64,000 nt of DNA from Fibrobacteria bacterium. GTDB taxonomy: Bacteria > Fibrobacterota > Chitinivibrionia > Chitinivibrionales > FEN-1185. Shown piece by piece: positions 22,609 through 63,260 of this stretch. The position numbers and the translations under genes were made by a program. Each line of letters starts with the position of its first letter. Position 1 is the stretch's first letter. The notes below the pieces were generated by a model. That model did no database searches. It saw only the letters and a program-made list of their open reading frames with translations, and had not been told where the DNA came from. Where the stretch lies: positions 192,001 through 256,000 of the forward strand of contig JBBIGR010000001.1 of NCBI GenBank assembly GCA_037447435.1, written 5' to 3'.

Positions 22609-23655
22609 ATGAAAAAAGCCCTTGTTTGCGGTGCCGGCGGATTCATAGGAAGTCATCTTGTAAAACGTTTGAAATCGGAAGGGTTTTGGGTTCGCGGCGT
22701 CGATATAAAAATGCCGGAATTCGAAACATCGGCAGCCGATCAATTCATCCGGGCCGACCTTCGTGATGCGGGTTTCTGTGCGGAGGTATGCGACACTGAT
22801 TTCGCCGAAGTGTATCAATTGGCCGCGGACATGGGCGGCGCCGGTTATATATTTACAAAAGAGCATGATGCGGACGTGATGCATAATTCGGTCACGATCA
22901 ATTGCAACATCCTCAAGGCCGCCGTTAGCGCAAATGTCAAAAAGTTGTTTTTTTCCTCTTCCGCTTGCATTTATCCCGAACGGAACCAGCTTGACCCTCT
23001 AAACCCCGATTGTTCGGAGGCTTCGGCATATCCCGCGGAACCAGACAGCGAATACGGATGGGAAAAATTATTCTCGGAACGCTTATACCTGTCGTTTCAG
23101 CGCAATTACGGAATTCCGGTGCGTATCGCGAGATTCCACAATGTTTTCGGGCCCCAGGGTTCCTGGAACAATGGAAAGGAAAAAGCGCCTGCAGCTTTAT
23201 GCAGGAAAATCGCACTCGCCCCGGATAACGGCGAAATAGAAATTTGGGGTGACGGGAAACAAACCAGATCCTTCCTTTACATAGACGAATGTTTGGACGG
23301 GGTCCGCAAATTTATGGACAGCACCTTTTCCGGCCCGCTTAATATAGGATCGGAAGAAATGGTTTCCATTGACAATTTGGCATATGCAATTATGAATATC
23401 GCCAAAAAGGACCTTGGCATCCGTCATATTCCGGGTCCGTTGGGCGTTGCCGGACGAAGATCGGACAATAAACTTATTCGTGAAAAACTCGATTGGGCCC
23501 CTTCGCTACCGCTTTCGTATGGTCTTTGCAAAACGTATTCTTGGATTTACGAACAAGTCGGCAACGGTGTAAAAGAAGCGCTAGTTTTCGCTAACGACAG
23601 CAAAACATTTGATTCACTTGAAGCCATTTCGGGGACATTCGCTTCAATAAGGTAA
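22609..23655 (+). CDS. NAD-dependent nucleotide-sugar epimerase, GDP-mannose 3,5-epimerase-like
   Basis: GAGGFIGSH, LAADMGGAGYI, SSACIYP, YGWEK, EKAPAALCRK, WGDGKQTRSF. Confidence 0.88.
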   Translation: MKKALVCGAGGFIGSHLVKRLKSEGFWVRGVDIKMPEFETSAADQFIRADLRDAGFCAEVCDTDFAEVYQLAADMGGAGYIFTKEHDADVMHNSVTINCNILKAAVSANVKKLFFSSSACIYPERNQLDPLNPDCSEASAYPAEPDSEYGWEKLFSERLYLSFQRNYGIPVRIARFHNVFGPQGSWNNGKEKAPAALCRKIALAPDNGEIEIWGDGKQTRSFLYIDECLDGVRKFMDSTFSGPLNIGSEEMVSIDNLAYAIMNIAKKDLGIRHIPGPLGVAGRRSDNKLIREKLDWAPSLPLSYGLCKTYSWIYEQVGNGVKEALVFANDSKTFDSLEAISGTFASIR

Positions 23656-23765: not shown

Positions 23766-24152
23766 ATGTTGCATATTGAAAGTGAGTTTTCTGAAATTAA
23801 AATTGTTCCCTCCGGTTTGAATCCCATGCTCGGGCATATCCGGGGAAAAGTAACCGATATAGACGGCAAGGGTTTGAAGCACAGCAGAATATGGATAAGG
23901 GAAACCGGACGAAGTACCTATACGGACAATTACGGCAATTTCGTCCTCATCAATGTTGTTCCGGCAATTTATACTCTTATTGCCGAAAACGAAGGATATA
24001 CGCAGGCGGTTTTAACCGATATTTCCGTTGAAAGCGGGGATAATCCGGGTAACCGTTTTATCATGCATCCTAAATACAGCAAACCGAAAAGCGACCCCTA
24101 CCGAGCATACGCGTTGCGGTTTGCGCAGGTTGTACCCTTTGCGACATTATAA
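23766..24152 (+). CDS. Stand-alone carboxypeptidase-regulatory-like domain protein
   Basis: GHIRGKVTD..GKGL...TDNYGNF...V.P..YTL; AAGGAGG RBS. Confidence 0.7.
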   Translation: MLHIESEFSEIKIVPSGLNPMLGHIRGKVTDIDGKGLKHSRIWIRETGRSTYTDNYGNFVLINVVPAIYTLIAENEGYTQAVLTDISVESGDNPGNRFIMHPKYSKPKSDPYRAYALRFAQVVPFATL

Positions 24153-24770
24153 AAAAGCCTTACTGACAACTACGATAGCCGCAACGATCAGGGCAGTGCC
24201 GGCGATTCTGTTTACTATTACTATTAGAGCGGGTTTAAAATAAACTTTGACCCTGCTGAATATGAAGCATTTTGTCGTATCGAATGTTAACGCGCAGGAA
24301 AAAAGGCCGATAAAAAAAATAAAAAACGGTTGTGTGCGCATACAGAAATTGACTCCGGCTATTCCCACAACGGTCATCCAAAAAACATAAACAAAAGGAT
24401 TGGATGAATTTATAAGAAAGCCCGAGATAAACCCTCTGAACAATTTCGGTTGTTGTTCCATAGTCCCTATTCCGTTCATCGGTACGGTTACCGCCGGTTT
24501 TCGTATCCATTGGGTCAAACCAAAGACAAACAGGATAACCGCACAAACGACAGAGGCCCATCGTTGGTTATTGACTTTTGTAAGAAATTGGGTGCAACCC
24601 AAGACCGTTATTGAAATGATGGCGGTATCGCTTACCCATAATCCTAAAAGTACGGCCATTCCCGCGACAAATCCGCTCCGTACGCATGCCTGAAAGTATA
24701 GCAGTAGCCCCGGTCCGACACTGAGAGTCATGGTAAGTGCGACCAATGAACCGGCAAAAAACGGGTTCAT
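24147..24770 (-). CDS. LysE-family translocator
   Basis: SVGP, G..AG....LG..VSD, GFLINSSNP motifs; ATGA overlap with neuA stop. Confidence 0.8.
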   Translation of the reverse strand: MNPFFAGSLVALTMTLSVGPGLLLYFQACVRSGFVAGMAVLLGLWVSDTAIISITVLGCTQFLTKVNNQRWASVVCAVILFVFGLTQWIRKPAVTVPMNGIGTMEQQPKLFRGFISGFLINSSNPFVYVFWMTVVGIAGVNFCMRTQPFFIFFIGLFSCALTFDTTKCFIFSRVKVYFKPALIVIVNRIAGTALIVAAIVVVSKAFL

Positions 24771-25891
24771 GGGTTCCGTGTTAGCATAATAAGGTCGCAA
24801 ACTTCCCGAACCGCACCATTGCCGCCTTGGGCTTTTGTAATGTAATGGGCGATATTTTTAACCGCAATATTCCCGTCCGGCACGGTCACGGCAACTCCGA
24901 CTTTTTGCATAACGTCAAGATCGTTGATGTCATCGCCGACGTACACCACGTCTTGAAACGAAAGCCCTTCTTTTTCAAGGAATTTTCCGAGCACTTCCAT
25001 TTTATTCCCCGATTTTGCATGAACATGGTCTATCGATAATTTGTATGCGCGTTGATAAACAATATCACTGTTTTCCGATGAAATGAACGCTGTTTTGAGC
25101 CCTGCTTTTTGGACGATCGAAATGCCCATTCCGTCACGAGTGTTAAATTTTTTTAGTTCATCACCGTTTGCGGAATAATACATTCCGCCGTCGGTAAGCA
25201 CGCCGTCGACATCCATGACCATAATTTTTACCTTTGCAAGTTTATTCAAAATGTCGCTTTTCTGGCGGCCTTCCATAAGACGTTGTCGCAAAAGCGCTTC
25301 CGTCATTGTAAACGTTGTCGCATCGTCTATCTCGACATTCAGTTCCGGCTCATTGACTTTTCTGCAAATAGTGTCGCCATACCATTTTCCGGCCTTGATT
25401 ACGTTTTTATTTAAGATATAAACATTGCCGTCATCGTAAAAAAATCCCGGAATGTCTTGCCTGCGCAGATTCCGATGCGTGGCATATTCGATTATCTTGG
25501 TGTAATATCCGGTCGCAAGGGTGTCGTAGTTGCCTTGTAAAAATTCTTTGATGCAATTGTCTATGGTATCATGGTTTCGCAGCGGCGAAGTCGGTTGCAA
25601 GACCACCACTGCATTGCACTCCACTTGTGCGGCAATATGCTGCAAAACGGCAAGAGTTGTCGTATCGTCCTGCGCTAAATCGCATGGCCGTATCATGACG
25701 CGCGCTCCGAAATTCCTGGCACAATCGGCAATGACGGGGTCTTCGGTAGACACCACAAAATCATCGAGAAGTTTCGATTGCTTTGCGGCCTGTATGGTCC
25801 AATAAATCAGCGGAAAACCGGCTATCGGTAAAATATTTTTTCCCGGCAGTCCCTTGCTCCCGCCGCGGGCCAAAATGACGCCAAATATCAT
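24767..25891 (-). CDS. neuA: CMP-nonulosonate synthetase fused to KdsC/YrbI-type HAD phosphatase
   Basis: ARGGSKGLPGKNI, LQPTSPLR, EIDD in the N-terminal domain; DVDGVLTDG, KKFNTRDGMG, GDDIND, GGNGAVRE in the C-terminal domain. Confidence 0.9.
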   Translation of the reverse strand: MIFGVILARGGSKGLPGKNILPIAGFPLIYWTIQAAKQSKLLDDFVVSTEDPVIADCARNFGARVMIRPCDLAQDDTTTLAVLQHIAAQVECNAVVVLQPTSPLRNHDTIDNCIKEFLQGNYDTLATGYYTKIIEYATHRNLRRQDIPGFFYDDGNVYILNKNVIKAGKWYGDTICRKVNEPELNVEIDDATTFTMTEALLRQRLMEGRQKSDILNKLAKVKIMVMDVDGVLTDGGMYYSANGDELKKFNTRDGMGISIVQKAGLKTAFISSENSDIVYQRAYKLSIDHVHAKSGNKMEVLGKFLEKEGLSFQDVVYVGDDINDLDVMQKVGVAVTVPDGNIAVKNIAHYITKAQGGNGAVREVCDLIMLTRNP

Positions 25892-25892
25892 A

Positions 25893-26966
25893 TCACATCC
25901 CCACTATCTTCAAGTAAAGATCCTTTATTTTATCTCTGGTGAGTATTGATTGCCAATTTTTGCCAAGCGCATTTTGCAAGGGTTTCTCCATGATAAGCGT
26001 TATGTCGATCATTTTTTCCAATGTTTTATCGTCAACAATTCCTACAGGATTCCGAGGCAACGTTATTTTATTATTGATCAGCATTTCCCTATAATCGGGA
26101 ATATATTCCGGATAATATTCCTCCAGATGATTAAACACAAGACAATTTGCCAATCCGTGATGGACTCCGAATGCCCAACTCAGCCCATAAGACAATGCGT
26201 GACAAATACCGACTTCGGAATACACAATGGCGTTTCCTCCCATGTACGATGCCATCATGAGATCGGCATCATTACCCTGGAATAAAAAAATGTTGTTACA
26301 AAGTTCCAATGCCTTGGACGCAAATGCTTTTGAAAATTCGTTGAGAAATGTTCCTGCCAGGGATTCGACGCAATGGATGTAACAGTCCATGCCCGTGAAA
26401 AAGCGTTGCTCTCTGGGAACAGTTGCGAGCAGATCGGGGTCGAGTATTACATAGTCGAACAGCGAATAATCGCTGTTGATACCCTGCTTCTTGACCGGCC
26501 CCGTAAGCACTGTTGTCCGCGACACTTCGGATCCGGTGCCGGATACGGTTGGTATTCCTATTTTGTAAATTGGCGGAACCGTGACGAGGTCCCAACCTTG
26601 GTACCTATGTGTTTTTCCCGGATTGGTAAGCATTATAGACAGCGCCTTTGCCGTGTCTAATGTCGAGCCGCCGCCTATTCCGATAATTGCCGAGGGAAGC
26701 GTGTGTTTTTGTTGTAAAACCGTTTCAACATGGATATCGATGGTTTCCGTTTTCGGTTCATTTGTCGTATCTTCAAAAAAGCATATGTCCGTACTTAGGA
26801 TCCGAATTTTATTCAGCAGCGGATTATTTTTGAAAAAATGATCAATGACAAAAACGACATATTTATCATTTAACCTTTTCTCTTCCAAAATATCCGCCAA
26901 GGCAGCTATTGCGCCGGATGAAAAAATCACCTGTGGAACGGGACGAAATATTTTATATTGCACCAT
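25893..26966 (-). CDS. Iron-containing alcohol dehydrogenase family, KdnB (Kdo 8-oxidase)-like
   Basis: GGGSTLD, YQGWDLV, PTVSGTGSEVSRTTVLTGP.KK.GINSD, TGMDCYIHCVESL, VGICHALSYGL; from memory these closely resemble Shewanella KdnB. Confidence 0.75.
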   Translation of the reverse strand: MVQYKIFRPVPQVIFSSGAIAALADILEEKRLNDKYVVFVIDHFFKNNPLLNKIRILSTDICFFEDTTNEPKTETIDIHVETVLQQKHTLPSAIIGIGGGSTLDTAKALSIMLTNPGKTHRYQGWDLVTVPPIYKIGIPTVSGTGSEVSRTTVLTGPVKKQGINSDYSLFDYVILDPDLLATVPREQRFFTGMDCYIHCVESLAGTFLNEFSKAFASKALELCNNIFLFQGNDADLMMASYMGGNAIVYSEVGICHALSYGLSWAFGVHHGLANCLVFNHLEEYYPEYIPDYREMLINNKITLPRNPVGIVDDKTLEKMIDITLIMEKPLQNALGKNWQSILTRDKIKDLYLKIVGM

Positions 26967-26969
26967 ACG

Positions 26970-28172
26970 TCAATTTTCCTGCAACTTGTTTAATGCCTCA
27001 TCCGCCGACGATATGAGATAATCGATGTCGTCGTCGGATAAATCCGTGCCAAAAGGAAAGGAAATCATGGAATCGAAGAACGCATTCGATTCCGGGCATG
27101 TTCCCGTATCGAAATAGCCGTTTTTTTGAAACAACTCGTACCGATAGAGCGGACAGTATTGTACCGCACATTTTATTCCATATTCATTGTAAAGCATGTC
27201 GATGAGATCGTCCCTTGTCTTTCCTGAATTACTCGTGCAAAACCGAGCCGGAAGCAAATGCATGGCTGAAACCGAATTCTGAGACTGCGCTTGGAATCGG
27301 AGTTCGCCATGACTACTAAGCCCTGAAACGATTTTTTCAAACGAAGCCCTTCTTTTTTCATTTATCTTATCGAGCCTTTCCAATAAAATCGTGCCCGCTT
27401 TTGCCTGAATTTCGCCAAGAGCAAAATTATACGGTATCAGTCCCGGAGCAGCTTCCACGATATTGCTCATTGCCGGCTGCCAATATTTTTGTTGATTGAC
27501 AAAAGGCCTTTGGCCTATTTTACGGAGTCCAAGAATCGTCTCGGCGTAATTGTCATTATTGGTAACGATCATTCCGCCTTCGCCGAGAGTGGTTATATTT
27601 TTTTGACCATGAAAACTGAAACAGCCGAAATCGCCGAACGTACCGACCTTTTTTCCCTGCCAATTTGCACCGGGAGCCTGGGCGCAGTCTTCGATAATTA
27701 TCAGACCGTGTTCCAAGGACATTTTCATCAGCTCATCCATTTGCACCGGTAAACCGTACAAGTGGACAACAACAATGGCCTTGGTTCTTGGTGTGATTTT
27801 TTTCCTTATATCGGAAATATCCATGACAAAGGTTTTAGGATCTATGTCTGCAAAAACGATTTTTGCCTTAAGCCGTAAAAACGGAAGCGCACTTGCGGTA
27901 AACGTATGCGCGGGTACAATGACTTCGTCGCCCTGTACAACACCGCTCAGCATTGTCGCAATTTCCAGCGCGCTGGAAGCATTGCTGACGCCGAAAGCGT
28001 GTTTAACCGACAAATATTTAGAAAAATCATTTTCAAATTCCTGCAGATAAGGCCCCATCGACAGTGTCTGCGCCTCCTGCAACGCGACATTCAATCGAGA
28101 AATTTCATCACTGGTCAATTTGGTTTGGATTCTTGGAAAATCGAGTTTTATTTTTACGCTCACGTCAATCAC
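26970..28172 (-). CDS. DegT/DnrJ/EryC1/StrS PLP-dependent sugar aminotransferase
   Basis: GDEVIVPAHTF, VHLYG, EDCAQA, FSFHGQKNITTLGEGG (PLP Lys). Confidence 0.9.
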   Translation of the reverse strand: MIDVSVKIKLDFPRIQTKLTSDEISRLNVALQEAQTLSMGPYLQEFENDFSKYLSVKHAFGVSNASSALEIATMLSGVVQGDEVIVPAHTFTASALPFLRLKAKIVFADIDPKTFVMDISDIRKKITPRTKAIVVVHLYGLPVQMDELMKMSLEHGLIIIEDCAQAPGANWQGKKVGTFGDFGCFSFHGQKNITTLGEGGMIVTNNDNYAETILGLRKIGQRPFVNQQKYWQPAMSNIVEAAPGLIPYNFALGEIQAKAGTILLERLDKINEKRRASFEKIVSGLSSHGELRFQAQSQNSVSAMHLLPARFCTSNSGKTRDDLIDMLYNEYGIKCAVQYCPLYRYELFQKNGYFDTGTCPESNAFFDSMISFPFGTDLSDDDIDYLISSADEALNKLQEN

Positions 28173-29274
28173 ACCCTTTCAATTGTTTCGAAGATGCATA
28201 CCAGGAAATTTCCTCAGCCGTATATTGCGACTTTCTTTCGAAAGCGAAATGTTGCGAATACTTTCTCAATGGCGATTCAACGTTGTTATGCTTATTGTGG
28301 TACAATCGATAGTGCGTTGATTTTTTTTCCAGATGGTTCTTAATTGTTTGTGCAATACGCTCTGCAGAAGTTCCGTTGTTTTGTATCGGTGCCAACTTTC
28401 TAATTTCTTCGATCGGGACATCGGCATGAATTTCTTTTCCTAACGATTCTCCGATGAAAACAACTGAAGAAAACCGGGTAACAAGAACTTCGCAATTTGC
28501 AATCATGTGATTGGTGTTTCCTCTTTCAAACACGAGCGACTTTGGCGCATATCGCATGATTTCCCGCACTGCACGTTTTACGTTTTCACTTGGGTGTAAT
28601 TTGAACACTATTTGACGTCCCTGAGCAATGCGGACGGTTTTCAGGATAAATTTTTTTCGGTTTTCATACTCCATGCATTCCCGTAAATTTGATGTTGCTG
28701 CCAGCACAAAATTTTTATAGGGAAAATCGTTATTCAAAAACTGCTTATTATTGTCGAAATTCGGCACCCCGGTAACGACAATTTTTTCAGGAGGAATGCC
28801 TTTTTTGACAAAAACTTCTTTAAATCCCGCCGACGCAACAAAGAAAAGTTCATAAGCATTAGATAACCCGGTAGCCGACGTACCGGCAATAAAACGCGGA
28901 AAACCGAAATTCTTCACTAAGAAATATCCCAAACGCTGCGGGTCGGTCATACCTTCCTGCACCAGAAAAACCGGTTTATTTCTAATATTTTTTTGTATAA
29001 TGAGATCTTGACATGTTACGACAAAATCATAATCGTTGGCGGCGCCCTTGTAATCGATTGCAGCCTCTTTTGATTTAAGATAATGCAGGGTCTGTTCCTT
29101 GTATTTCCCGCCGAGGATGGAAAAATCGAAAAATCGCTTTGCCACATCATCCCTAAAATCCCCGATATAGTATGGGGTAAAGACACAATCGTATTCCGGA
29201 AAATGCATTGCGATTTGATGCATCATGGTCGTTTGGTTGACAGACCCGCAAATAAACAGGATTTTTTTCTTCAT
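28165..29274 (-). CDS. Conserved hypothetical GT-B protein, candidate nonulosonate (sialyl/Kdn) transferase
   Basis: QEG, TGVPNFD, FKLHP and FSSV motifs resemble CMP-ulosonate transferases; TAATG coupling to neuB. Confidence 0.55.
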   Translation of the reverse strand: MKKKILFICGSVNQTTMMHQIAMHFPEYDCVFTPYYIGDFRDDVAKRFFDFSILGGKYKEQTLHYLKSKEAAIDYKGAANDYDFVVTCQDLIIQKNIRNKPVFLVQEGMTDPQRLGYFLVKNFGFPRFIAGTSATGLSNAYELFFVASAGFKEVFVKKGIPPEKIVVTGVPNFDNNKQFLNNDFPYKNFVLAATSNLRECMEYENRKKFILKTVRIAQGRQIVFKLHPSENVKRAVREIMRYAPKSLVFERGNTNHMIANCEVLVTRFSSVVFIGESLGKEIHADVPIEEIRKLAPIQNNGTSAERIAQTIKNHLEKKSTHYRLYHNKHNNVESPLRKYSQHFAFERKSQYTAEEISWYASSKQLKGCD

Positions 29275-30188
29275 TATACTGCCATTTCCAGCGTTTGATT
29301 TTGCAAAACGCGCCGCATTTTCTTTTGTGCCGCAATTTCGCTGGCATACAATCTTTTTGTCCCATCGCCCATTGCTTTTTCGACGCATCGTATATTACGA
29401 ACCAGAATTTCGAGTCCGTGCAGTTCTACGGAAGCCGCTTGATCGGTTCCCCACATCGCCCGTTCGAGGGTTATATGGCGTTCGACGAAATGTGCGCCCA
29501 AAGCCACTGCTGCAACCGTTGTGGGCAATCCGATTTCATGGCCCGAATATCCGATAATTGCTTTAGGAAAATTCTTTTCAAGGGTAGTTATCATCCGAAG
29601 GTTTAATTCCTCATCTATGCACGGGTATGCCGAAGTGGTATGGGCAAGAAAAAGATTTTCTTCCCCGATAAGTCCGACAGCTTCTTTTATTTCCTGCATT
29701 GTCGACATGCCGGTGGAAATCATTACTGGCGCCCCCGCATGCTTGATACTTGACAATAAACTTTTATCGGTAAGCATTGCCGAGGAAATTTTATACAGAG
29801 GCACATCGAATTGTTTTATGAATTCCACCGAAGGAATGTCCCAGCATGAAGCAAACCATTGGATGTTCATTTCTTTGCAATACCGGTCCAATTCCACATA
29901 CTCATTGAAACCGAATTCAATCTTTTTGCGATATTCAAGATAAGAAATATATCCCCACGGCGTTTCACGCATGACACCTTGTTGTTCGGGAGGAACACAT
30001 AATTCCGGAGTCCGCTTTTGGAACTTGACTGCATTGCATCCTGCCCGAACCGCGCCGTCTATCATTTTTTTTGCTAGTTCTATCGAACCATTGTGATTTA
30101 TCCCTATTTCGGCAATGATAAAAACCGGTGCGCCCTCACCGACTACGGCGTGTCCGACAACGCATTGCTTTCCATTTTGTAATTCCAT
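29274..30188 (-). CDS. neuB: NeuB-family nonulosonate synthase, short form without C-terminal AFP/SAF domain
   Basis: IIAEIGINHNG, AVKFQKR, KISSA, ISTGMS, HTTSAYP, GYSGHE, ERHITL...GTDQAAS. Confidence 0.92.
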   Translation of the reverse strand: MELQNGKQCVVGHAVVGEGAPVFIIAEIGINHNGSIELAKKMIDGAVRAGCNAVKFQKRTPELCVPPEQQGVMRETPWGYISYLEYRKKIEFGFNEYVELDRYCKEMNIQWFASCWDIPSVEFIKQFDVPLYKISSAMLTDKSLLSSIKHAGAPVMISTGMSTMQEIKEAVGLIGEENLFLAHTTSAYPCIDEELNLRMITTLEKNFPKAIIGYSGHEIGLPTTVAAVALGAHFVERHITLERAMWGTDQAASVELHGLEILVRNIRCVEKAMGDGTKRLYASEIAAQKKMRRVLQNQTLEMAV

Positions 30189-30290
30189 TGTATCCCCTTT
30201 TTGAATGCTGCTTCATTTGTTTATAAATGCCGACCTAGTATGTTGCTTTGCAACTGCATCGTTGCAGCTGAGATAAGTCATATTTAGTTG

Positions 30291-30950
30291 CTAATTTTTT
30301 GCAAATTCTATTGTGGCGTAATACGCTTCGGCACTTGACTCGGTATTATCGGAATCCGTCATGATGCTTACCGCTTCGATGTGAGAAAACCCTTTGCCGA
30401 AGCATTGTTCAATATCGTCCCGTACATTTACTTTTTGAAACACCCATTTTCCAAGATTCTCTTTTCCAGATTGAAGCACGATCACTTTGTCGTATGCGTT
30501 TTTTGAATCCATAACCTCGCTTCCGACTCTAAGCGAGGTACTCCACACATATTTGACGGCATGAATGGAAAACCCTTTTTTTACGCCGACGATGATTCCC
30601 GCAGCCGAATCATTTCTTCGTTTTTCGTCCTCCCGGGCGCTATCCGGAAGCGTCACGGCTTTCCATGCCCATTTCAACACCGGGTATTCGCTCAAAGTAA
30701 TCGAAATCTTTTTTGCCAAACAAAGATTATGTGCCGAGTTAAAAACATGCAATACGAATTGTCCTTGAGTTTTAGAAACATCGAACATCTGTTTATTTCC
30801 CAGAATTATTTCCCATTTGCCTTGTTGCACCGTCTTGTCATTTACCGCAATGGAAAACGAATCTATTAAGGAGATTTCCGGAAATACCTGCCTATGATAA
30901 ATAAGGACAACGGCACCGATAAATATTCCCCTAATTAATTTATTTGTCAC
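30291..30950 (-). CDS. DUF3047 family exported protein
   Basis: YPVLKWAWKA, DSAAGI, KYVWS, GKWV...V..D, IMTDSDNT motifs. Confidence 0.75.
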   Translation of the reverse strand: MTNKLIRGIFIGAVVLIYHRQVFPEISLIDSFSIAVNDKTVQQGKWEIILGNKQMFDVSKTQGQFVLHVFNSAHNLCLAKKISITLSEYPVLKWAWKAVTLPDSAREDEKRRNDSAAGIIVGVKKGFSIHAVKYVWSTSLRVGSEVMDSKNAYDKVIVLQSGKENLGKWVFQKVNVRDDIEQCFGKGFSHIEAVSIMTDSDNTESSAEAYYATIEFAKN

Positions 30951-31139: not shown

Positions 31140-32009
31140 ATGAAAACAATTTCACTCGTACAATACAAAGGCGGAGTCGGAAAAACAACCGTAGCGGCAC
31201 TTTTATGTAAAGTCCTTGCAGCGGCAAAGTACCGCGTTCTTGCAATTGATCTTGACCGGCATCAATACCATTTATCCAGTCTTTTGGGCGGATCAGCCTC
31301 ACCGAAGATATTCCGAGATAGATCACCGACCACATTCGCTTCGGGTTTGCTTTCCAATCTTTTACTCAAAACCGCATTCGAAAATCTGAATTATATAACG
31401 CTTTGTGAATCGTTTTGCGACTGGAATACGAACGACACTTATCAGCTCAGCAAACGGTTCGCATTTTTTAATTTTAAGGCCGATTATGATTATGTAATCA
31501 TCGACACGCCTCCCGGGTTCGGCAAAATTCACGAACTTGCCATTAGCGTTTCGGACCATATCGTTTTGCCTATCGATTTATCTTCGATTTCGGTTGCATC
31601 CGTCGAGCGGTTTTGCCTCGATCTGCATAAAAGAGAACATTATCAAGTAAAAAGTTACAGTATTTTGCGCAATTTCGTGTCGCGGGCCGTCAACGCAGCT
31701 CAGTTCAATCCGTTGTTTCATGCGAGCCTGAAAAACAGGGTTCTGTCCCATAGTCTTTCGGCAGACGAACGCATCCGTTCAATCACCTCGGGTTATTGCG
31801 ATTTTCTTTCTCAGTATCTGCCGCAACATATTGTTTCGCAACTCTTTTCAATGGTTTTGGATCTTTTCCAAGCAGATCCGGTTAATTTGGCCCAAGCATG
31901 CAATAAACTTTGTTTCAAGGAATCTCTTGATACGCGCTTCAATGAATCTGCGCTTATTTTCGAAAATGCCGAAACAGTTTCAACCGATTTTTCCGTTTCT
32001 TTTTCATAA
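31140..32009 (+). CDS. Orphan ParA/MinD-family ATPase
   Basis: Deviant Walker A KGGVGKTT; AIDLD; YDYVIIDTPP; no parB adjacent. Confidence 0.8.
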   Translation: MKTISLVQYKGGVGKTTVAALLCKVLAAAKYRVLAIDLDRHQYHLSSLLGGSASPKIFRDRSPTTFASGLLSNLLLKTAFENLNYITLCESFCDWNTNDTYQLSKRFAFFNFKADYDYVIIDTPPGFGKIHELAISVSDHIVLPIDLSSISVASVERFCLDLHKREHYQVKSYSILRNFVSRAVNAAQFNPLFHASLKNRVLSHSLSADERIRSITSGYCDFLSQYLPQHIVSQLFSMVLDLFQADPVNLAQACNKLCFKESLDTRFNESALIFENAETVSTDFSVSFS

Positions 32010-33289
32010 TGCCCCGTTCACGCACTGCAGAAATATTTTCTTTTATAAAAAGAACCGCCGCCGGGCGCGCACCGGGTCAACTGATCATACAGATCTCGGA
32101 TCGATGTAATGCGTTTTGCCCGCAATGCGGCATGCGCGTTACCGAGGATTTTCGACGTACATCTCTTCCCGAAGATAAGATAAAGAAAATTATCGATGAT
32201 GCTGTGCAACGCGGAATATCATTGCTCTCCTTTACCGGAGGAGAACCGCTGCTTGATATAGAACTGCTCGTGCGGCTCATTACGCACGCCCAAAATGCCG
32301 GCATACCGTATATTCGGACCGGCACAAACGCTTTTTTCCTTGCAAGGCCTTTGCAAAACGGATTCGAGGTTCGGATACGGCGCATTATCGATGCCTTGGC
32401 GAAAACTTCTTTGAGAAATTTTTGGATAAGTATTGATTCATGCGATCCGGTTATTCATGAAGAAATGCGGGGGTTCAAGGATGTCGCCAAAGGAATAGAA
32501 TTTTCATTGCCGCTTTTTCATGAAGCCGGGCTGTATCCTGCCGCAAACATGGGAATTAACAGGAATATGGCAGGCCGCGGATCCATTCCGGTTTTCAATG
32601 ATCCTGCATCGACTTTTCCCTTTGACTTTTATAAAAACTTGGTTTTTGAAAATGCCGTTACGTTTTATTCTTTTGTTAGGGATTTGGGTTTTACAACAGT
32701 CAACATGTGCTATCCCATGAGTTTTGACCCCAACGATCTGGAGATCTACGAAAAAAAGCATTTGCCGTTGCAACCCGTGTACGAGGCAATGTCGCGCGAC
32801 GCCGTGGTTCGTTTCACAAAACAGGAAAAATCCGCTTTATTTGCCGGAATTTCCAAGGCTATTTCAGTACATCGGAGTAAAATCAGAATCTTTACCCCGC
32901 AAAGTTCTCTGTATGCGCTTTCGAAAGCCATGAGCGACCCTGGGTACGAATCCTATCCGTGCCGGGGTGGGCATGATTTCTTTTTTGCCTCGGTACTTGG
33001 AGAAATTTTTCCTTGCGGATATATGGGGAAAAAACCGCTTGACATTTCTTGGGGAAAAAAAGCGGATGCTCCTCACTGTTTTAACTGCGAATGGGAATGC
33101 TTCAGAGACCCATCGGAACTTTTTGGTCCGGTCCACGATTTTTTACATGCGCCTTTGCGATTGGCAAAGCGTTTCATCCATGACAGCGACTATTTCAAAC
33201 TCTGGATAAATGATATCCGCTATTTTACGGCTTGCGACCTTTTCAACGGCCGAGTCCCGCCGAATTATTCAAAGCTCGCGAAGTTTTAA
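32009..33289 (+). CDS. Radical SAM protein with C-terminal Twitch/SPASM-like Cys cluster
   Basis: CNAFCPQC, FTGGEP, ISID, CRGG..PCG..CFNCEWEC; TAATG overlap with ParA-like gene. Confidence 0.88.
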   Translation: MPRSRTAEIFSFIKRTAAGRAPGQLIIQISDRCNAFCPQCGMRVTEDFRRTSLPEDKIKKIIDDAVQRGISLLSFTGGEPLLDIELLVRLITHAQNAGIPYIRTGTNAFFLARPLQNGFEVRIRRIIDALAKTSLRNFWISIDSCDPVIHEEMRGFKDVAKGIEFSLPLFHEAGLYPAANMGINRNMAGRGSIPVFNDPASTFPFDFYKNLVFENAVTFYSFVRDLGFTTVNMCYPMSFDPNDLEIYEKKHLPLQPVYEAMSRDAVVRFTKQEKSALFAGISKAISVHRSKIRIFTPQSSLYALSKAMSDPGYESYPCRGGHDFFFASVLGEIFPCGYMGKKPLDISWGKKADAPHCFNCEWECFRDPSELFGPVHDFLHAPLRLAKRFIHDSDYFKLWINDIRYFTACDLFNGRVPPNYSKLAKF

Positions 33290-33320: not shown

Positions 33321-35771
33321 TTATCGCACATCAACAACATCCTCGTTCGGCATAATGTCGGCCACGGGATTGACGACATGCTCGTTACTGTCGGCCTCGT
33401 CGTACGATTCGGAAAACATGGTTTCCAGAGCCTTACCCCATGAATATTCTTTGCGCACATGTGAAATTGCGGATGCCTTCATTTCCGCATACAGCATCGG
33501 GAATTTTTTTTTGAGAACAAGCAACCCCTCTATTTTCATGACCCAATCTTCAATGCTTTTTGACGAAGCGATAAATCCGGTTTTACCATTTATAATGATT
33601 TCTTTCGGCCCTCCGAATTCCGAAACGATGGCGGGCAAACCGCACGCCAGTGCCTCGAGAACCACCATGCCGAACGTATCGGTAATACTTGGAAAAACGA
33701 AACAATCCGCAATGCTGTACAAGTCGGGAAGATCGCATCTGTCTATTCTCCCCGTAAAAATCGCACGCGGATACGGCTTCATCGCCTCACAGAATTCCGC
33801 AAAATCGGGGCCATTGCCCGCAAATACGATGTTTATGGACGGATCTTTTAAAATTAATTGTTTGTAAACCGTTGCGAGGAAATCGAGATTTTTCTCTTTT
33901 GAAATCCTGCCCGCATAAATCAAGATCGCACCGTCTCTAATTCCATAGCGCTTTTGAAGCCATGCCCGGGAATCGGGCCTTGGAAAAAAAACATCCGTAT
34001 CTATTCCTCGGGTAAAGCGCGACATGCGATAGCGCGGCACGCCCCGTTTTGCAAGAACATCGATATATTCCTGCGTCGGCACGACGATTTTGTTGACCAT
34101 GGAAAAAAACCAGTCGATATACGCTTCGGTAAATTGGGCTACCGAGTCATCACCGGTTATCTGATGCGCCTGGCGTGTGAAATCGGTATGATATACGCCG
34201 TTGCATGGAATATGCAACAACTTTGCCGCAAGCAGGCCGATGAGCCCGACCGGGCCGGGAGTCGATATGAAGATTTCGTCCGGCTCGTTATTGTAAATTA
34301 GCGAAAGCGAAGTAAGAAGGGACGGCACGCGCAAAGTGACGGTCGAAAAAAACGATGGCGTATAGGAATGAATGCAAGGCAAATCGATCAACGGCTGCGG
34401 TAGATCCGTATCTTTTTCTTCTTTAAGCAAACAAGTGACGAGCGTGCAATCGATGCCTTTTTCCCGCACTTTGACCGATATTTCGCGAAGAACCTCGGAA
34501 ACCCCGTTCAAATCGGTCAATGTATCGGTAAACCATAAATAGCGTTTTTGCTTTCTATGTGCCTTGTCGATATACGTTTGCGCGATGTCATCGACGATAT
34601 TACGGGACGCATTCAGAACATTTACGGTTGTGAAAAACGGCAAAGACAGGAAAACGGCCGGAATTGTCCCGACCAAACGGTTGATAAGGCCGATTATATT
34701 CCCCTGCGATAGGCTTTGTTCGGCCTCACTGGCGAAAAACCTGACAAATTCGTCGGTTGCTTCGGAAATTTTATTTGAAAGGATGGCGAGCTTTGTTTCC
34801 GTTGGTCCTGCCGCTCCGCTTTGAAACAATTCCATTGCCTCGATAAAAATACGGTACATTGCGCTCAGACCGCTGTTTTTTCCTTTTTTCATTCGTTTCA
34901 GGGCAATGCGGGTTTTTATATCGAGCGGCTTATTGTCGAAAACAAGCCCTGAAAATGCATGAAAAAAAGGCGACGTTTGTTTATTTTTACTGTTTGAAAA
35001 ATCGTATGCTATTTTGTAAATTGCAAAGGCCAAGCTTTGATAATCGTTATGCCTGCCGCAGGCCTCTGTTTTTTTTCCGCACATTTGTTCCAGAAATTCC
35101 TCCGCCGATCCAGCTTCCGCTTTCGTATACGTTTTTCCTGCAAACAACCCGCTATGATCGTCGGACCCCGCTACTACCCCTTTTTTCCAGGGTTCCAGGG
35201 ACAAAGGCTTTATGGAGTATTTGCGTTGCAAACGTTCGATGTGCTGGGGAGTGAGAGATGCAAGAACCTGCATCAGGATTTCATTATTGCGCTTATTTCT
35301 GCTTCCGTTGATACCTTCAAAATTATCAAACAAAAGCATCAATCGCTCCACATGCTCTTTTGTTAATCGGTGATTCACGGAAAACGTGGCATGCGCCACG
35401 GCATGCGGCAATTCATTTGCATATAACAACGCCCGCAAGTCGTATATGCTCCCGCGCACGCGCTCGATTTCCTTGAACTGGACCTCATTCAATCCATATA
35501 TCAATACATGGATCTTTGTCCCGTCTTCAGGGAAATACGTCGTGGATTCCACACCCGTAATCGTATCTTGCGGATGTTTGATTCGCAATTCGAGCGCTCC
35601 ATCGATGCAATTGTGGTCGGTAAGCGTGACAAAATCCATTCCGGCAGCTTTACATATCTGATACACGGTTTCGGGCGGCACATATGATTCGCGTGTACCG
35701 AGTCTTTTTAAAAACCATTCCGACGGATGCTGGGAAAACGATGAATGCACATGCATGTCGATTTTTGCCAT
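33321..35771 (-). CDS. PHP-domain + GT4 glycosyltransferase fusion
   Basis: DMHVHS, TDHN, GSDDH (PHP); DLNGVS, STPGPVG, YHTDF, GRISKEKN, PSITDTFGMVVLEALACG (GT4). Confidence 0.9.
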   Translation of the reverse strand: MAKIDMHVHSSFSQHPSEWFLKRLGTRESYVPPETVYQICKAAGMDFVTLTDHNCIDGALELRIKHPQDTITGVESTTYFPEDGTKIHVLIYGLNEVQFKEIERVRGSIYDLRALLYANELPHAVAHATFSVNHRLTKEHVERLMLLFDNFEGINGSRNKRNNEILMQVLASLTPQHIERLQRKYSIKPLSLEPWKKGVVAGSDDHSGLFAGKTYTKAEAGSAEEFLEQMCGKKTEACGRHNDYQSLAFAIYKIAYDFSNSKNKQTSPFFHAFSGLVFDNKPLDIKTRIALKRMKKGKNSGLSAMYRIFIEAMELFQSGAAGPTETKLAILSNKISEATDEFVRFFASEAEQSLSQGNIIGLINRLVGTIPAVFLSLPFFTTVNVLNASRNIVDDIAQTYIDKAHRKQKRYLWFTDTLTDLNGVSEVLREISVKVREKGIDCTLVTCLLKEEKDTDLPQPLIDLPCIHSYTPSFFSTVTLRVPSLLTSLSLIYNNEPDEIFISTPGPVGLIGLLAAKLLHIPCNGVYHTDFTRQAHQITGDDSVAQFTEAYIDWFFSMVNKIVVPTQEYIDVLAKRGVPRYRMSRFTRGIDTDVFFPRPDSRAWLQKRYGIRDGAILIYAGRISKEKNLDFLATVYKQLILKDPSINIVFAGNGPDFAEFCEAMKPYPRAIFTGRIDRCDLPDLYSIADCFVFPSITDTFGMVVLEALACGLPAIVSEFGGPKEIIINGKTGFIASSKSIEDWVMKIEGLLVLKKKFPMLYAEMKASAISHVRKEYSWGKALETMFSESYDEADSNEHVVNPVADIMPNEDVVDVR

Positions 35772-60356: not shown

Positions 60357-60600
60357 TATCCGCCTTCGCTCCCACGGTACTTTTTTTGAAAATACCCTCC
60401 GTATCTTTGGGGGAGGTTTGCAATTATTAATATTGGGAAAACCAAAAAACAATTCCCGGAATCAGTAAAGATACTCTCGCAATAATCCTGAATAGTAGAA
60501 GATCCTCGATTTTCCGGGCCTTCCGACTTCTTCCTTTCGGAGATTTCCAATAGCCCCGGAAAAGCTCTCGCTGCCGCTCATTGCCGCCCTCTTTTCAAAT

Positions 60601-60616
60601 TGGTATGTGTTTTGCA
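60601..60616 (+). promoter_or_regulatory. sigma54 (-24/-12) promoter TGGTAT-GTGTT-TTGCA
   Basis: GG at 60602-60603 and GC at 60614-60615 (N10), about 28 nt upstream of the ku start. Confidence 0.65.
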
Positions 60617-60643
60617 TATTTATTTCTTAAGAAGGGAGCAACT

Positions 60644-61411
60644 ATGGCCGCGACAATCTGGATCGGAAATATACGATTCAAGGAAATTGACGTTCCGGTA
60701 AAACTCCATACTGCGATCAGTCAAAATCGCGTCCAGTTTCATCTTTTGCACAAAACCGACCGCGTCAAACTACGCCAGCAGATGATTTGTAAATATGATA
60801 AGGCGCCAGTACCGCCGGAAGAGCAAGTAAAGGGATTTCAAATTGATGAAAGGAAATACGTCATTTTGGACCCTGACGAAATCGAAGTATTGGAGCCGCA
60901 ACCGAGCAGGATAATCGACGTTCATGAATTCGTAACAAGCGGACAAATCGACCCTGTTTTCATTGAACATGTCTATTTCCTGGAACCCGATTCATCTCCA
61001 AGAACTTACAGCGCGCTTGCCGCGGCGCTCCGGGAATCGGATGTCCAAGGCATTTGTACGTGGGTAATGAGAAAACGCGCCCATTTCGGCTCAATTCATG
61101 CGGCAGGGAATGCAATCAGGCTTAATGTGTTACGATACACCGACGAAATAGTACAGGCAAAATCGCTGGGCCTTGAGTCTTTCGAATTGTCTGAAAAAGA
61201 GGTAAGCATCGGCAGCGAGTTGATTAATAAGCTTTCCGTCGAGTTTCAGCCTGAAAAATATGAAAACGAACATCAGAAGAAGCTGCGGGACATGATACAA
61301 AAGAAAGCAGCCGGTCAGAAAATCGCGCTGTTCTCTCCCAAACACCTTAAGCCGACATCGCCGGGCAAATTGCTCGAAGTACTCCAAAAGAGCTTAAAAA
61401 AGGCGGCGTAA
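60644..61411 (+). CDS. ku: Ku protein (divergent copy 1)
   Basis: IW.G.I.F..I.VPVKL, FHLLH, KGF, I.V.EFV...IDP...YFLEP; RBS before ATG 60644. Confidence 0.9.
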   Translation: MAATIWIGNIRFKEIDVPVKLHTAISQNRVQFHLLHKTDRVKLRQQMICKYDKAPVPPEEQVKGFQIDERKYVILDPDEIEVLEPQPSRIIDVHEFVTSGQIDPVFIEHVYFLEPDSSPRTYSALAAALRESDVQGICTWVMRKRAHFGSIHAAGNAIRLNVLRYTDEIVQAKSLGLESFELSEKEVSIGSELINKLSVEFQPEKYENEHQKKLRDMIQKKAAGQKIALFSPKHLKPTSPGKLLEVLQKSLKKAA

Positions 61412-62271
61412 TGAAGCGGTATGAAAAGGAAAAAGTCGTTGAAAAAAGCGAAACCGGTGCCCAGGAAATTCAGTCTCCGGGTATTTGGAGCGGCACCGTC
61501 AGTTTTAGTCTTGTGGCGATTCCGGTTAGAATTGTCAAGTCGGTCGAACCGGGTCGCATTTCGTTTCACCTGCTCCACGCCAAGGATTATTCCCCGCTTC
61601 AGCGAACAATGTTTTGCCCCGAGGAAGAGAAAATCGTACCTCCTGAGGAAATCGTCAGAGGTTTTGAAACAGAACCGGGAAAGCATGTCATAATAACCGA
61701 GGAAGAGCTTGAATCCGTCTCGCCGGAACGAAGCCGCACTATAGAAATCGCGGAATTCATCGACATAAAAGAGGTCGAACCACTTTATTACGACCATCCG
61801 TATTTTCTTGTTCCGCTTAAAGGCGGTGAAAAATCGTATCGGCTTCTTGCCGAATCGCTGCAACGGACAAATAAAGCGGGGCTGGCGAAATTTGTTCTTG
61901 ACGAGAGAGAGTGCCTTGTTTTAATAATGAGCAAAGACGGCGCGCTTGCCATAAGCACGCTTCATTACAGCGACGAATTATTGTCTGCCCAAGGAATGGT
62001 TTTGCCGGTCGACGACATATCGGACAATGAAAAGAACCGAATAAAAAGCAGTATCAAAAGCATGATGGCCGACTTTACGCCGGAAAAATATTCGAACGAA
62101 CGCAGGGAAAAACTTTTGAAAATAATACAAAAGAAAATAACAAAAAAAGCCGAAGTCGAGGCACCTGCTGCAGAGGAGGAAGAAAAAGCCGAAGGAATGG
62201 AAGACTTGATGATGGCCCTGGAGAAGAGCATGCGTAAAGTAAAAAAAGCGAACAAAGAACCGCGGTCATAG
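61411..62271 (+). CDS. ku: Ku protein (copy 2)
   Basis: IWSGTVSFSLVAIPV, FHLLH, YYDHPYFLVP, Y.LL..L, DLM.ALEKS; TAATG overlap with copy 1. Confidence 0.92.
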   Translation: MKRYEKEKVVEKSETGAQEIQSPGIWSGTVSFSLVAIPVRIVKSVEPGRISFHLLHAKDYSPLQRTMFCPEEEKIVPPEEIVRGFETEPGKHVIITEEELESVSPERSRTIEIAEFIDIKEVEPLYYDHPYFLVPLKGGEKSYRLLAESLQRTNKAGLAKFVLDERECLVLIMSKDGALAISTLHYSDELLSAQGMVLPVDDISDNEKNRIKSSIKSMMADFTPEKYSNERREKLLKIIQKKITKKAEVEAPAAEEEEKAEGMEDLMMALEKSMRKVKKANKEPRS

Positions 62272-62354
62272 ACCGTTGCTTTTCCGACCAGGCAAAGGCG
62301 GGGAACCAAAGAAGGGCACGATTTTGCAACCGGATTTGATAAAACGGTATTACC

Positions 62355-63260
62355 ATGAACAAAACAATAAACATTAACGATAGGGAATTGTCGCTCTCGA
62401 ATCTTGAAAAAGAGCTTTACCCTTCTTACGGCTTTACAAAAAGCCGTATACTCGAATACTATAGCCTTATTGCACCGTTCATGCTCCCGTTTCTAAAAAA
62501 CCGCGCATTAACCTTAAAACGTTATCCGCACGGCGTGGATGGTGATTTCTTTTTCGAGAAGCGTTGTCCCAAGCACCCCGATTGGCTTGAAACCGCCGAG
62601 GTCCCCTATGGCGATATGAAAACAATAAATTATTGCGTTGCCAACAATTTGGAAACCCTTATCTGGGTTGAAAATCTGGCATCAATAGAACTCCATGTGC
62701 CCCTTGCAAAAGCCGATTTTCCGGACAATCCCGATTCGATGGTCTTTGATCTTGACCCCGGCGACGGCGCAAATATTCTCGATTGCGCAAAAGTTGCATT
62801 TACAATTAATGATTTGCTGTCCGATCTTAAACTTGAAAGCTTTGCAAAAACTTCCGGCAAAAAGGGCCTTCACATATTTGTCCCGCTTGATCCCAAATCA
62901 ACGACATTCAACGATACTAAAATATTTTCCAAAGCCGTTGCCGCCATTATGCAGAAAACCTATCCGGATCTTGTCACGACAAAAATGAACAAAGAATTCC
63001 GCAAAAACAAAGTGTTTATCAACTGGTCGCAAAACGACTCGTCTAAAACAATGGTCTGCGTTTATTCTTTGCGTGCGATTGATAAACCCGCGGTTTCATT
63101 TCCCATTTCCTGGAAAGATCTTGCGAACCTGGCATTACGGAAAGACCCTGAAAAATTCCAGGTTCTTGCGCCGGACGCGCTTACCGATGTCAATAAAAAA
63201 GCCGCGTTTTACCGGGAAATTCTTGACATAAAGCAAAGGTTGCCGACTACATGGACTTAA
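62355..63260 (+). CDS. Stand-alone LigD polymerase (PrimPol) domain
   Basis: LSNLEK, R.LT.KRYP.G, FFEK, ELH, FDLDP, KTSGKKGLH, FINWSQN. Confidence 0.92.
   Translation: MNKTININDRELSLSNLEKELYPSYGFTKSRILEYYSLIAPFMLPFLKNRALTLKRYPHGVDGDFFFEKRCPKHPDWLETAEVPYGDMKTINYCVANNLETLIWVENLASIELHVPLAKADFPDNPDSMVFDLDPGDGANILDCAKVAFTINDLLSDLKLESFAKTSGKKGLHIFVPLDPKSTTFNDTKIFSKAVAAIMQKTYPDLVTTKMNKEFRKNKVFINWSQNDSSKTMVCVYSLRAIDKPAVSFPISWKDLANLALRKDPEKFQVLAPDALTDVNKKAAFYREILDIKQRLPTTWT

Follow-up and report, generated by a model that had tools for sequence, protein, structure and literature searches.

What is made by an operon in which genes for a sialic-acid-like sugar stand beside an oxidase and an aminotransferase of the kind that aminates the end of an octulosonic acid? 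The question is raised by seven genes (24147..30950, minus strand) in a stretch of 64,000 nucleotides from a Fibrobacteria bacterium (GCA_037447435.1, contig JBBIGR010000001.1, positions 192,001 to 256,000), the whole of which we call the window. An original prediction, made from the letters of the window, was that the operon oxidises and transaminates the terminal hydroxyl of 2-keto-3-deoxynononic acid (KDN) or neuraminic acid, and that the resulting 9-amino nonulosonate is activated and transferred to a surface glycan. The gene content makes it highly probable, in our judgement, that the operon makes an amino-ulosonate, and we put the probability that this sugar has a KDN backbone with its amine at C9 (9-amino-9-deoxy-KDN) at roughly 0.55. 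The KDN-type backbone, the pair of enzymes that would oxidise and then aminate, and the synteny have held up; the identity of the aminotransferase with KdnA and the place of the oxidase within the KdnB clade have not, and the surface glycan has become the less likely acceptor. The argument is built on protein families, folds, signature residues, clades and gene neighbourhoods, from which we infer amine position, chain length, acceptor and every substrate.

KDN synthesis joined to amination of the type known for 8-amino-3,8-dideoxy-D-manno-octulosonate (Kdo8N) is a new combination of known chemistry. The nitrogen of natural nonulosonic acids is, to our knowledge, at C5 or at both C5 and C7. A natural 9-amino sialic-acid-like sugar would, if the proposal is true, be a new class, and the operon would supply enzymes for C9 amination. 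A 9-N-acetyl form of N-acetylneuraminic acid (Neu5Ac) has been made as a stable analogue of 9-O-acetyl-Neu5Ac (PMC10795189). The original prediction knew of no described natural pathway, and the literature we searched, in which subscription papers and supplements were little covered, likewise held no description of a natural 9-amino nonulosonate. The strings 384.14, 425.16, C9H17NO8 and Chlorob were absent from the supplements of PMC8157484, and the accessible parts of PMC13111663, PMC10626005 and PMC9146996 contained nothing on the sugar.

A recurrent operon

As had been proposed, the seven open reading frames (ORFs) all lie on one strand, in the order DUF3047 > neuB > orfX > degT > Fe-ADH > neuA-HAD > lysE, where Fe-ADH is an iron-type alcohol dehydrogenase and HAD a phosphatase domain; ORF positions and Pfam matches bear out both the order and the tight spacing. 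DUF3047 is separated from neuB by 102 nt, and from neuB onward the distances are -1, -8, +3 and +1, then -34 for lysE as first called. The likely lysE start is the ATG at 24770, which gives an overlap of 4 nt (-4) and a protein of 207 amino acids, equal in length to its homologue in metagenome contig L084. For orfX the corrected start is 29274, with an ATG that shares bases with the stop codon of neuB; the database protein P0127 likewise has 369 amino acids.

The six-gene core from DUF3047 to neuA-HAD recurs in identical order in metagenome contigs L084-L086, with lysE adjoining it in L084 and lying about 5 kb downstream in L085, and a four-gene run neuB-degT-FeADH-neuA/HAD is present in a Bdellovibrionales genome (L001). 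The arrangement is therefore not due to chance. Synteny of this kind, which the original prediction had proposed to look for in other genomes, also extends to the wider aminotransferase clade and to Leptospira rfb loci, both treated below. Within its own phylum the operon is patchy: searches of 296 genomes turned up the KdnB-like gene in three, the aminotransferase type that we call DegT2 in two and orfX likewise in two, and in 5 congeners they turned up none of these genes. A scan for promoters and terminators gave counts at chance level (17 vs. 16.9 and 6 vs. 9.6, respectively).

A KdnB-like oxidase outside the Kdo-linked clade

By Pfam and by its scores against proteins of solved structure, the Fe-ADH (25893..26966, minus strand) is a KdnB-like enzyme that would oxidise a hydroxyl of KDN. 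Its match to Shewanella KdnB (5k8c) reaches 372 bits, and no other family exceeds 96. The motifs GGGS, D..IH, CH...YG and HHG are kept, all four in common with a Shewanella KdnB, so that the KdnB-like motifs noted at the outset are real; we take them to be NAD-loop and metal-site motifs. KdnB is given as the sole characterised member of its subfamily (PMC5125639), and a review has it convert 3-deoxy-D-manno-octulosonate (Kdo) directly to Kdo8N, before lipid IVA (PMC4402001).

Gene neighbourhoods were counted over the 80 genome loci with the best Fe-ADH matches. A KdnA-type gene is a neighbour in 52 and kdsB in 25, but neuB in only one, the top match (L001). In a quick tree of 102 rows, the 79 best-match Fe-ADHs besides L001 form one clade, with a support of 100 in the Shimodaira-Hasegawa-like approximate likelihood ratio test (SH-aLRT), that excludes the window protein. 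A 31-row subset gave the same split (99.8/100), and 13 diagnostic columns separate the window protein from this Kdo-linked clade. The rows outside the clade mostly adjoin DegT2 and neuB. In both trees, whose root is uncertain, the window Fe-ADH is thus sister to the KdnA/KdsB-linked clade and not, as had been expected, a member of it. The original prediction was to be given up if the Fe-ADH fell outside the KdnB clade and the synteny was not conserved; the Fe-ADH does fall outside, but its core inference survives because the synteny is conserved. By analogy, we suggest that the Fe-ADH works like KdnB, though it is no member of the Kdo-linked clade.

The Kdo8N system of Shewanella oneidensis (KdnB 5k8c, KdnA 5k8b and KdsB) is among the closest known systems, in that an ulosonic acid is oxidised and then transaminated by a closely related Fe-ADH with the same motifs and a pyridoxal phosphate (PLP) enzyme of the DegT family. 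In the window, however, the Fe-ADH belongs to a sister group and the aminotransferase to another clade, NeuB, NeuA-HAD and OrfX accompany them in place of KdsB, and the likely acceptor is not lipid A.

The review restricts Kdo8N to Shewanella (PMC4402001). Pairs of kdnA and kdnB, some with kdsB, were frequent in Desulfobacterota-type genomes (L002-L080), and kdnB was seen with kdsB in Chitinophagaceae and Flavobacteriaceae.

An aminotransferase clade linked to neuB and neuA

The PLP aminotransferase (26970..28172, minus strand; Pfam DegT) would aminate the oxo-KDN left by the oxidase. The original prediction had likened it to KdnA, of which it is not an orthologue. The KdnA structure 5k8b ranks only 20th among its matches, at 130 bits, and KdnA and DegT2 are distinct clades, each with a support of 100; these results rule out that the enzyme is KdnA. 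Eighty-eight rows make up the DegT2 clade (support 100), and those of its members that have names belong to KSB1, Oligoflexia, Victivallales, Gracilibacteria and Leptospira. In the phylum to which the Bdellovibrionales carrier G296 belongs, a search of 401 genomes found DegT2 in three.

We examined the context of DegT2 in 80 metagenome loci, 38 of them at least 8 kb long and some near-duplicates. Linkage to neuB or neuA was seen in 39 of the 80 (neuB in 33, neuA in 28). A KdnB-like Fe-ADH accompanies DegT2 in 19 loci, and a divergent one in five. By gene content, 38 loci are biosynthetic, 17 catabolic, one both and 24 neither. The catabolic set goes with one sub-clade of DegT2 and comprises an aldo-keto reductase and a NanA/DapA-family class I pyruvate aldolase (L131, L141, L143, L146, L151, L160, L119 and L109), to which several loci add ABC or MFS sugar transporters and an unknown protein family; it is a candidate pathway for degrading an amino-ulosonate. 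The two contexts barely overlap and look like mirror images, which suggests as the substrate of DegT2 a free amino sugar acid, one degraded by other bacteria.

L091 and L093 encode a SPASM-domain protein between DegT2 and neuA, and their contigs have no Fe-ADH; in the short L090 one is encoded between neuB and DegT2. We speculate that a SPASM or radical SAM protein may serve there as a substitute, oxygen-independent oxidase. Overall, SPASM or radical SAM genes lie beside DegT2 and neuA or neuB in L090, L091, L093 and L133, and in L094, L112 and L140. Among fused proteins, P0048 joins DegT2 to a HAD phosphatase; P0100 (DegT2 and an Fe-ADH without its N-terminus) and P0095 (DegT2 and Fe-ADH) come from one lineage, may be assembly artefacts and carry little weight.

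OrfX marks a probable amination module

The 369-residue product of orfX (28165..29274, minus strand) has no Pfam or NCBIfam match and falls in no curated family, and searches of the ESM Atlas returned unnamed clusters only, together with one in which 11% of the members carry Glyphos_transf. Its predicted structure (predicted local distance difference test, pLDDT, 85) has the GT-B fold under which it was first labelled. Residues Q106-E107-G108, F224-K-L-H227 and S269 are invariant in the family, with a nearly invariant proline accompanying FKLH; we take these to resemble the acidic-Gly, His-Pro and Ser-Ser motifs of bacterial cytidine monophosphate (CMP)-sugar transferases.

The OrfX family is widespread: a sample of 401 genomes from the phylum to which a Muriicola genome belongs has it in 136. 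We inspected the neighbourhoods of 34 of the 136 loci, hand-picked across the score range. A cytidylyltransferase gene lies beside orfX in 31 of the 34, and a pair of oxidoreductase and aminotransferase in 29: a short-chain dehydrogenase/reductase (SDR) with a class III aminotransferase in 22, and an Fe-ADH with a DegT protein in seven. The SDR and class III loci often also hold transketolase-like halves, a HAD gene and a short NeuB 53-66% identical to that of the window. Three different pairs, the window's own included, thus occur beside orfX, and this context argues strongly that the module exists for amination. We suggest that OrfX, given its modelled fold and its neighbours, is a CMP-ulosonate transferase whose acceptor is likely a lipid.

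The backbone is most likely KDN

The window NeuB (29274..30188, minus strand) matches PF03102 alone and consists of the catalytic barrel, the SAF domain being absent. It scores below the cut-offs of the curated Neu5Ac (NeuB) and pseudaminic acid (PseI) synthase families, and no other NeuB was found in the genome. Together with the fusion of a NeuA-type cytidylyltransferase (CTP_transf_3) to a KdsC-family HAD phosphatase (24767..25891, minus strand), it completes a gene set of the KDN-9-phosphate type. The NeuA signature ARGGSKG..GKN was read correctly in the cytidylyltransferase domain, which scores 72-78 bits against solved CMP-Neu5Ac synthetases and at most 29 bits against KdsB. Two positions of BT1713 are replaced by Ala in its mutant structures 4hgq and 4hgr; in alignments, the HAD domain has Glu and Lys there, where the residue of KdsC that faces the Glu is Arg. 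The score of the window HAD falls from 97.6 bits against wild-type BT1713 to 94.8 and 92.1 against the mutants. We take Glu and Lys at these positions to be determinants of specificity for KDN-9-phosphate.

The KDN route of Bacteroides thetaiotaomicron is accordingly the closest parallel for this half of the operon, with NeuB, HAD and NeuA but no NeuC, and with the Glu and Lys of BT1713 kept; BT1714 is presumably its synthase and BT1713 (3e81) its phosphatase, alongside a CMP-KDN synthetase. In contrast to that route, the window has a NeuB without SAF and a phosphatase fused to NeuA, and adds the oxidase, aminotransferase, orfX and lysE.

The genome has a separate Kdo pathway apart from the operon, with kdsA on C2, kdsB on C15, waaA on C36 and lpxC on C39. 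These genes rule out the operon as a substitute for the Kdo pathway. The only KdsC-like domain found in the genome is the operon's own, and the Bdellovibrionales carrier G296 also has kdsA. As for N-acetylmannosamine (ManNAc), no NanE scored over the cut-off in the genome, its one AGE-family protein is nearest to cellobiose 2-epimerase and below the cut-off, and its sole Epimerase_2 gene sits in a different sugar cluster on C8; OrfX itself, however, has a NeuC-like fold. Pfam annotation of the operon revealed no NeuC, acetyltransferase, sugar kinase or transketolase gene. The NeuA-type domain, the Glu and Lys of the HAD, the separate Kdo genes, the lack of a NanE over the cut-off and the remote Epimerase_2 together make KDN the most likely backbone. 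The KDN type first proposed thus gains from the HAD signature and the NeuA-type domain, and the substrate, mannose 6-phosphate (Man-6-P), would follow from family and context.

The proposed pathway and its alternatives

We suggest the following pathway. NeuB, judged by its family and context, would join Man-6-P and phosphoenolpyruvate (PEP) to give KDN-9-phosphate, and the HAD domain, whose signature residues are in place, would dephosphorylate this and free the C9 hydroxyl. By analogy with KdnB, the Fe-ADH would oxidise that hydroxyl to an aldehyde, and DegT2 would transaminate the 9-oxo-KDN to 9-amino-KDN. The NeuA domain, by its family, would then make the CMP-sugar, although the order of oxidation, transamination and CMP activation is tentative. 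Finally, OrfX, by its fold and context, would transfer the sugar to a lipid, and the product may be moved by the LysE-family membrane protein (24147..24770, minus strand; PF01810), a possible lipid or product translocator. Three lines of evidence favour C9. The phosphatase frees exactly the C9 hydroxyl; the aminotransferase in the green sulfur version of the module is sister to KdnA; and the characterised relative of the oxidase makes the terminal amine of Kdo8N (PMC4402001).

Several observations pull the other way. The aminotransferase is DegT2 rather than KdnA, so the regiochemistry of KdnA cannot be carried over directly. By overall score, KdsC (130-132 bits) is a better match to the window HAD than BT1713 is (98 bits). 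The nine carbons ascribed to the NeuB product are our reading of its partners. Transketolase-like halves, present in 18 of the 34 orfX loci, could alter the backbone, and the top fold matches of OrfX are epimerases, ahead of TagF and polysialyltransferase. These points bear on four alternatives.

The same pathway might aminate C5 instead, so that KDN or CMP-KDN would become genuine neuraminic acid, unacetylated and made with no ManNAc. In favour of this are the head group of the Chlorobium limicola aminoglycosphingolipid, reportedly assigned as neuraminic acid, the mass of 267.095 that amino-KDN isomers share, and an operon from which NeuC and acetyltransferase genes are missing. However, the nearest characterised relatives of the two enzymes work on a terminal CH2OH, and the DegT of green sulfur bacteria is sister to KdnA. 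Free neuraminic acid, moreover, cyclises via its C5 amine, so that amination would have to take place on the CMP-sugar or at a later stage. We regard a C5 amine as unlikely.

The product might instead have another chain length, seven or eight carbons built from a shorter aldose phosphate, or an amine at C7 or C8. The clade of SAF-less NeuB proteins is uncharacterised, the transketolase-like genes would fit a changed backbone, and the sugar of the Flectobacillus glycosphingolipid is said to be a terminal-amino heptulosonic acid. The lipid itself is described as a unique glycosphingolipid (PMC5155239). Against this, the NeuA-type domain and the KDN-9-phosphate-type residues of the phosphatase indicate nine carbons, and the window operon is without a transketolase gene; this alternative also seems to us an unlikely one.

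Neu5Ac could be the backbone if OrfX were a divergent NeuC-type epimerase supplying ManNAc, in which case the product would be 9-amino-Neu5Ac on a surface glycan. NeuC is indeed the best fold match of OrfX (Z 18.1), followed by UDP-GlcNAc 2-epimerases (Z 16.9-17.7), PglA (15.5), TagF (15.4) and polysialyltransferase (13.2), and many OrfX homologues carry weak PF02350 labels. Nevertheless, an hhalign comparison with one NeuC returned a probability of only 9%, across 45 columns, though the test is a weak one whose template was a single sequence. The orfX gene of green sulfur bacteria keeps company with late genes, those for NeuA, oxidase and aminotransferase, apart from the HAD-neuB operon, and in the window no operon sugar kinase links ManNAc to the phosphatase step. 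We consider this reading quite improbable.

Least credible, and very improbable, is a mosaic, with ordinary KDN as the product of NeuB, HAD and NeuA, and with Kdo8N, made for lipopolysaccharide from the cell's own Kdo, as that of the Fe-ADH and DegT. In its favour, kdsA, kdsB and waaA are in the genome, the operon holds its only KdsC-like domain and the Fe-ADH is close to KdnB, but the DegT is not KdnA, the Fe-ADH differs from the Kdo-linked clade in the 13 diagnostic columns, and DegT2 is tied to neuB or neuA in 39 of 80 loci, as against neuB in one of the 80 best Fe-ADH loci.

The acceptor is likely a membrane lipid

For 9-amino-KDN, or whichever amino-KDN the operon makes, a membrane lipid is the likely acceptor. 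The surface glycan of the original prediction is less likely in this genome on account of the orfX context and of an operon on C79 (L218:2431-8127) that encodes LysE, a CDP-alcohol transferase, an Spt-like protein, a GNAT protein, an SDR and DUF4833, and which we predict to make a sphingolipid. Its spt-like gene scores 607 bits against a cut-off of 640, and we take the GNAT protein to resemble bacterial ceramide synthase. Among 31 relatives, only the window genome (G000) and a congener, G065, have an spt-like gene near 600 bits, with one partial match besides. In G065 the same predicted sphingolipid operon (L220:3316-10774) likewise has the LysE gene at its head; it is preceded by a nucleotidyltransferase-aminotransferase fusion, suggesting a different head group. 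Clustering of the genes for Spt, bCerS and CerR is frequent (PMC11334938).

Whether the lipid is ceramide is a different matter. Spt-like genes (at least 440 bits) occur in 58 of 66 orfX carriers and 55 of 80 non-carriers, a modest enrichment among genomes that are related; spt-like and GNAT genes were both absent in five of 37 carriers; and the one-contig genome G274 has an SDR/class III orfX cassette with no spt-like gene above 226 bits. A rule that orfX implies ceramide is therefore unsupported. Other DegT2 loci (L001 and Leptospira rfb) are without orfX and have the appearance of polysaccharide loci. On balance, ceramide as the acceptor in the window's organism falls just short of an even chance.

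Green sulfur bacteria

The seven orfX loci with an Fe-ADH and a DegT protein lead to the green sulfur bacteria. Three of the seven genomes were tested for the Fenna-Matthews-Olson (FMO) protein and all three were positive, as was G714, which has the class III version of the orfX cassette. In these bacteria (L187-L189 and L204-L207), a cassette orfX-neuA-FeADH-DegT lies near genes for a lysylphosphatidylglycerol (LPG)-synthase-type membrane protein and an acyl-CoA synthetase, and its DegT is sister to KdnA with a support of 100. All five genomes of this type that were examined have a separate HAD-neuB operon (L192-L196), whose NeuB is 60-63% identical to that of the window and groups next to it; three of the five are among those shown to be FMO-positive. 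Green sulfur bacteria also have spt-like and GNAT genes.

The sugar of the C. limicola lipid was reportedly identified in 1991 by Jensen et al. as unacetylated neuraminic acid, which is equal in mass to the amino-KDN isomers. The lipid is reported as an aminoglycosphingolipid (cited in PMC11762602), and we found no assignment of genes to it. The green sulfur orfX cassette supplies candidate genes. The likeness to the window extends to orfX, neuA, Fe-ADH, DegT, HAD, a close NeuB and the spt-like and GNAT genes. In contrast, the oxidase and aminotransferase of green sulfur bacteria belong to other clades than those of the window, and the reported head group is a 5-amino sugar, not 9-amino-KDN.

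The Leptospira module

A second relative of the operon is the second module of the Leptospira interrogans rfb locus (LA_1613-LA_1615 onward), where neuB2, an aminotransferase gene, neuA2 and an alcohol dehydrogenase gene stand in a row. Ricaldi et al. gave no role to the aminotransferase YP_002103, encoded next to the second NeuB and NeuA (PMC3438082). Table S6 of PMC9736851 has 37 serovar columns; in 12 of these, Copenhageni and Lai among them, neuB, DegT, neuA, alcohol dehydrogenase, radical SAM and methyltransferase genes are consecutive, and a gene table of L. interrogans names kdnB (PMC8510873). In our tree, two Leptospira DegT proteins lie within DegT2, near L112 and L140, loci that also share the long NeuB and radical SAM partners of Leptospira; that either protein is YP_002103 could not be confirmed. 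Unlike the window, the Leptospira module begins with a NeuB that is part of a long fusion and continues with genes for radical SAM, methyltransferase and carbamoyltransferase proteins, orfX is absent from the Leptospira rfb rows seen in Table S6, and the literature treats the module as a Neu5Ac route.

The leptospiral Neu5Ac was called by mass and retention time, and the profile of sugars derivatised with 1,2-diamino-4,5-methylenedioxybenzene (DMB) contains unexplained peaks at m/z 407 and 440 (PMC3438082). By our computation, 407.16 is the mass of dehydrated DMB amino-Neu5Ac, and N-acetyl-amino-KDN is isobaric with Neu5Ac. These coincidences of mass are leads only, and the match in retention time to Neu5Ac argues against an isomer in Leptospira.

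If the pieces are put together, OrfX might be an unrecognised family of lipid 'sialyltransferases' that makes a ganglioside-like amino-KDN ceramide and is served by three interchangeable oxidase/aminotransferase pairs. The same family would supply the genes for the Chlorobium lipid, whose 'neuraminic acid' would be the 9-amino isomer or be made free of ManNAc; the catabolic pathway would match the biosynthetic one; and part of the leptospiral 'Neu5Ac' would be isobaric N-acetyl-amino-KDN. We offer this as a tentative extension, with the odds against its holding in every part. It puts the question within reach of culture work, in green sulfur bacteria with an orfX cassette and a genetically unassigned aminolipid, and in Leptospira serovars with the DegT2 module.

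Other features of the window and its genome

The first gene of the operon encodes a DUF3047 protein (30291..30950, minus strand; Pfam PF11249, E 7e-34) with a hydrophobic N-terminus, probably an accessory protein. A second DUF3047 gene (G000 C13:50708-53459) lies beside a LysE gene, a GT9-like gene and methyltransferase genes, so that DUF3047 and LysE are paired twice in the genome. An NAD-dependent epimerase gene of GDP-sugar type (22609-23655, plus strand) converges on the operon, and close homologues of it adjoin neuB or DegT2 in L091 (68%) and L130 (58%). On the other side of the operon, a GT4 glycosyltransferase gene (33321-35771, minus strand), with a long N-terminal part that by eye is PHP-domain-like, converges on a radical SAM gene (32009-33289, plus strand). 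Further along the window (60581-63260, plus strand), two tandem Ku genes are followed by a LigD primase-polymerase domain.

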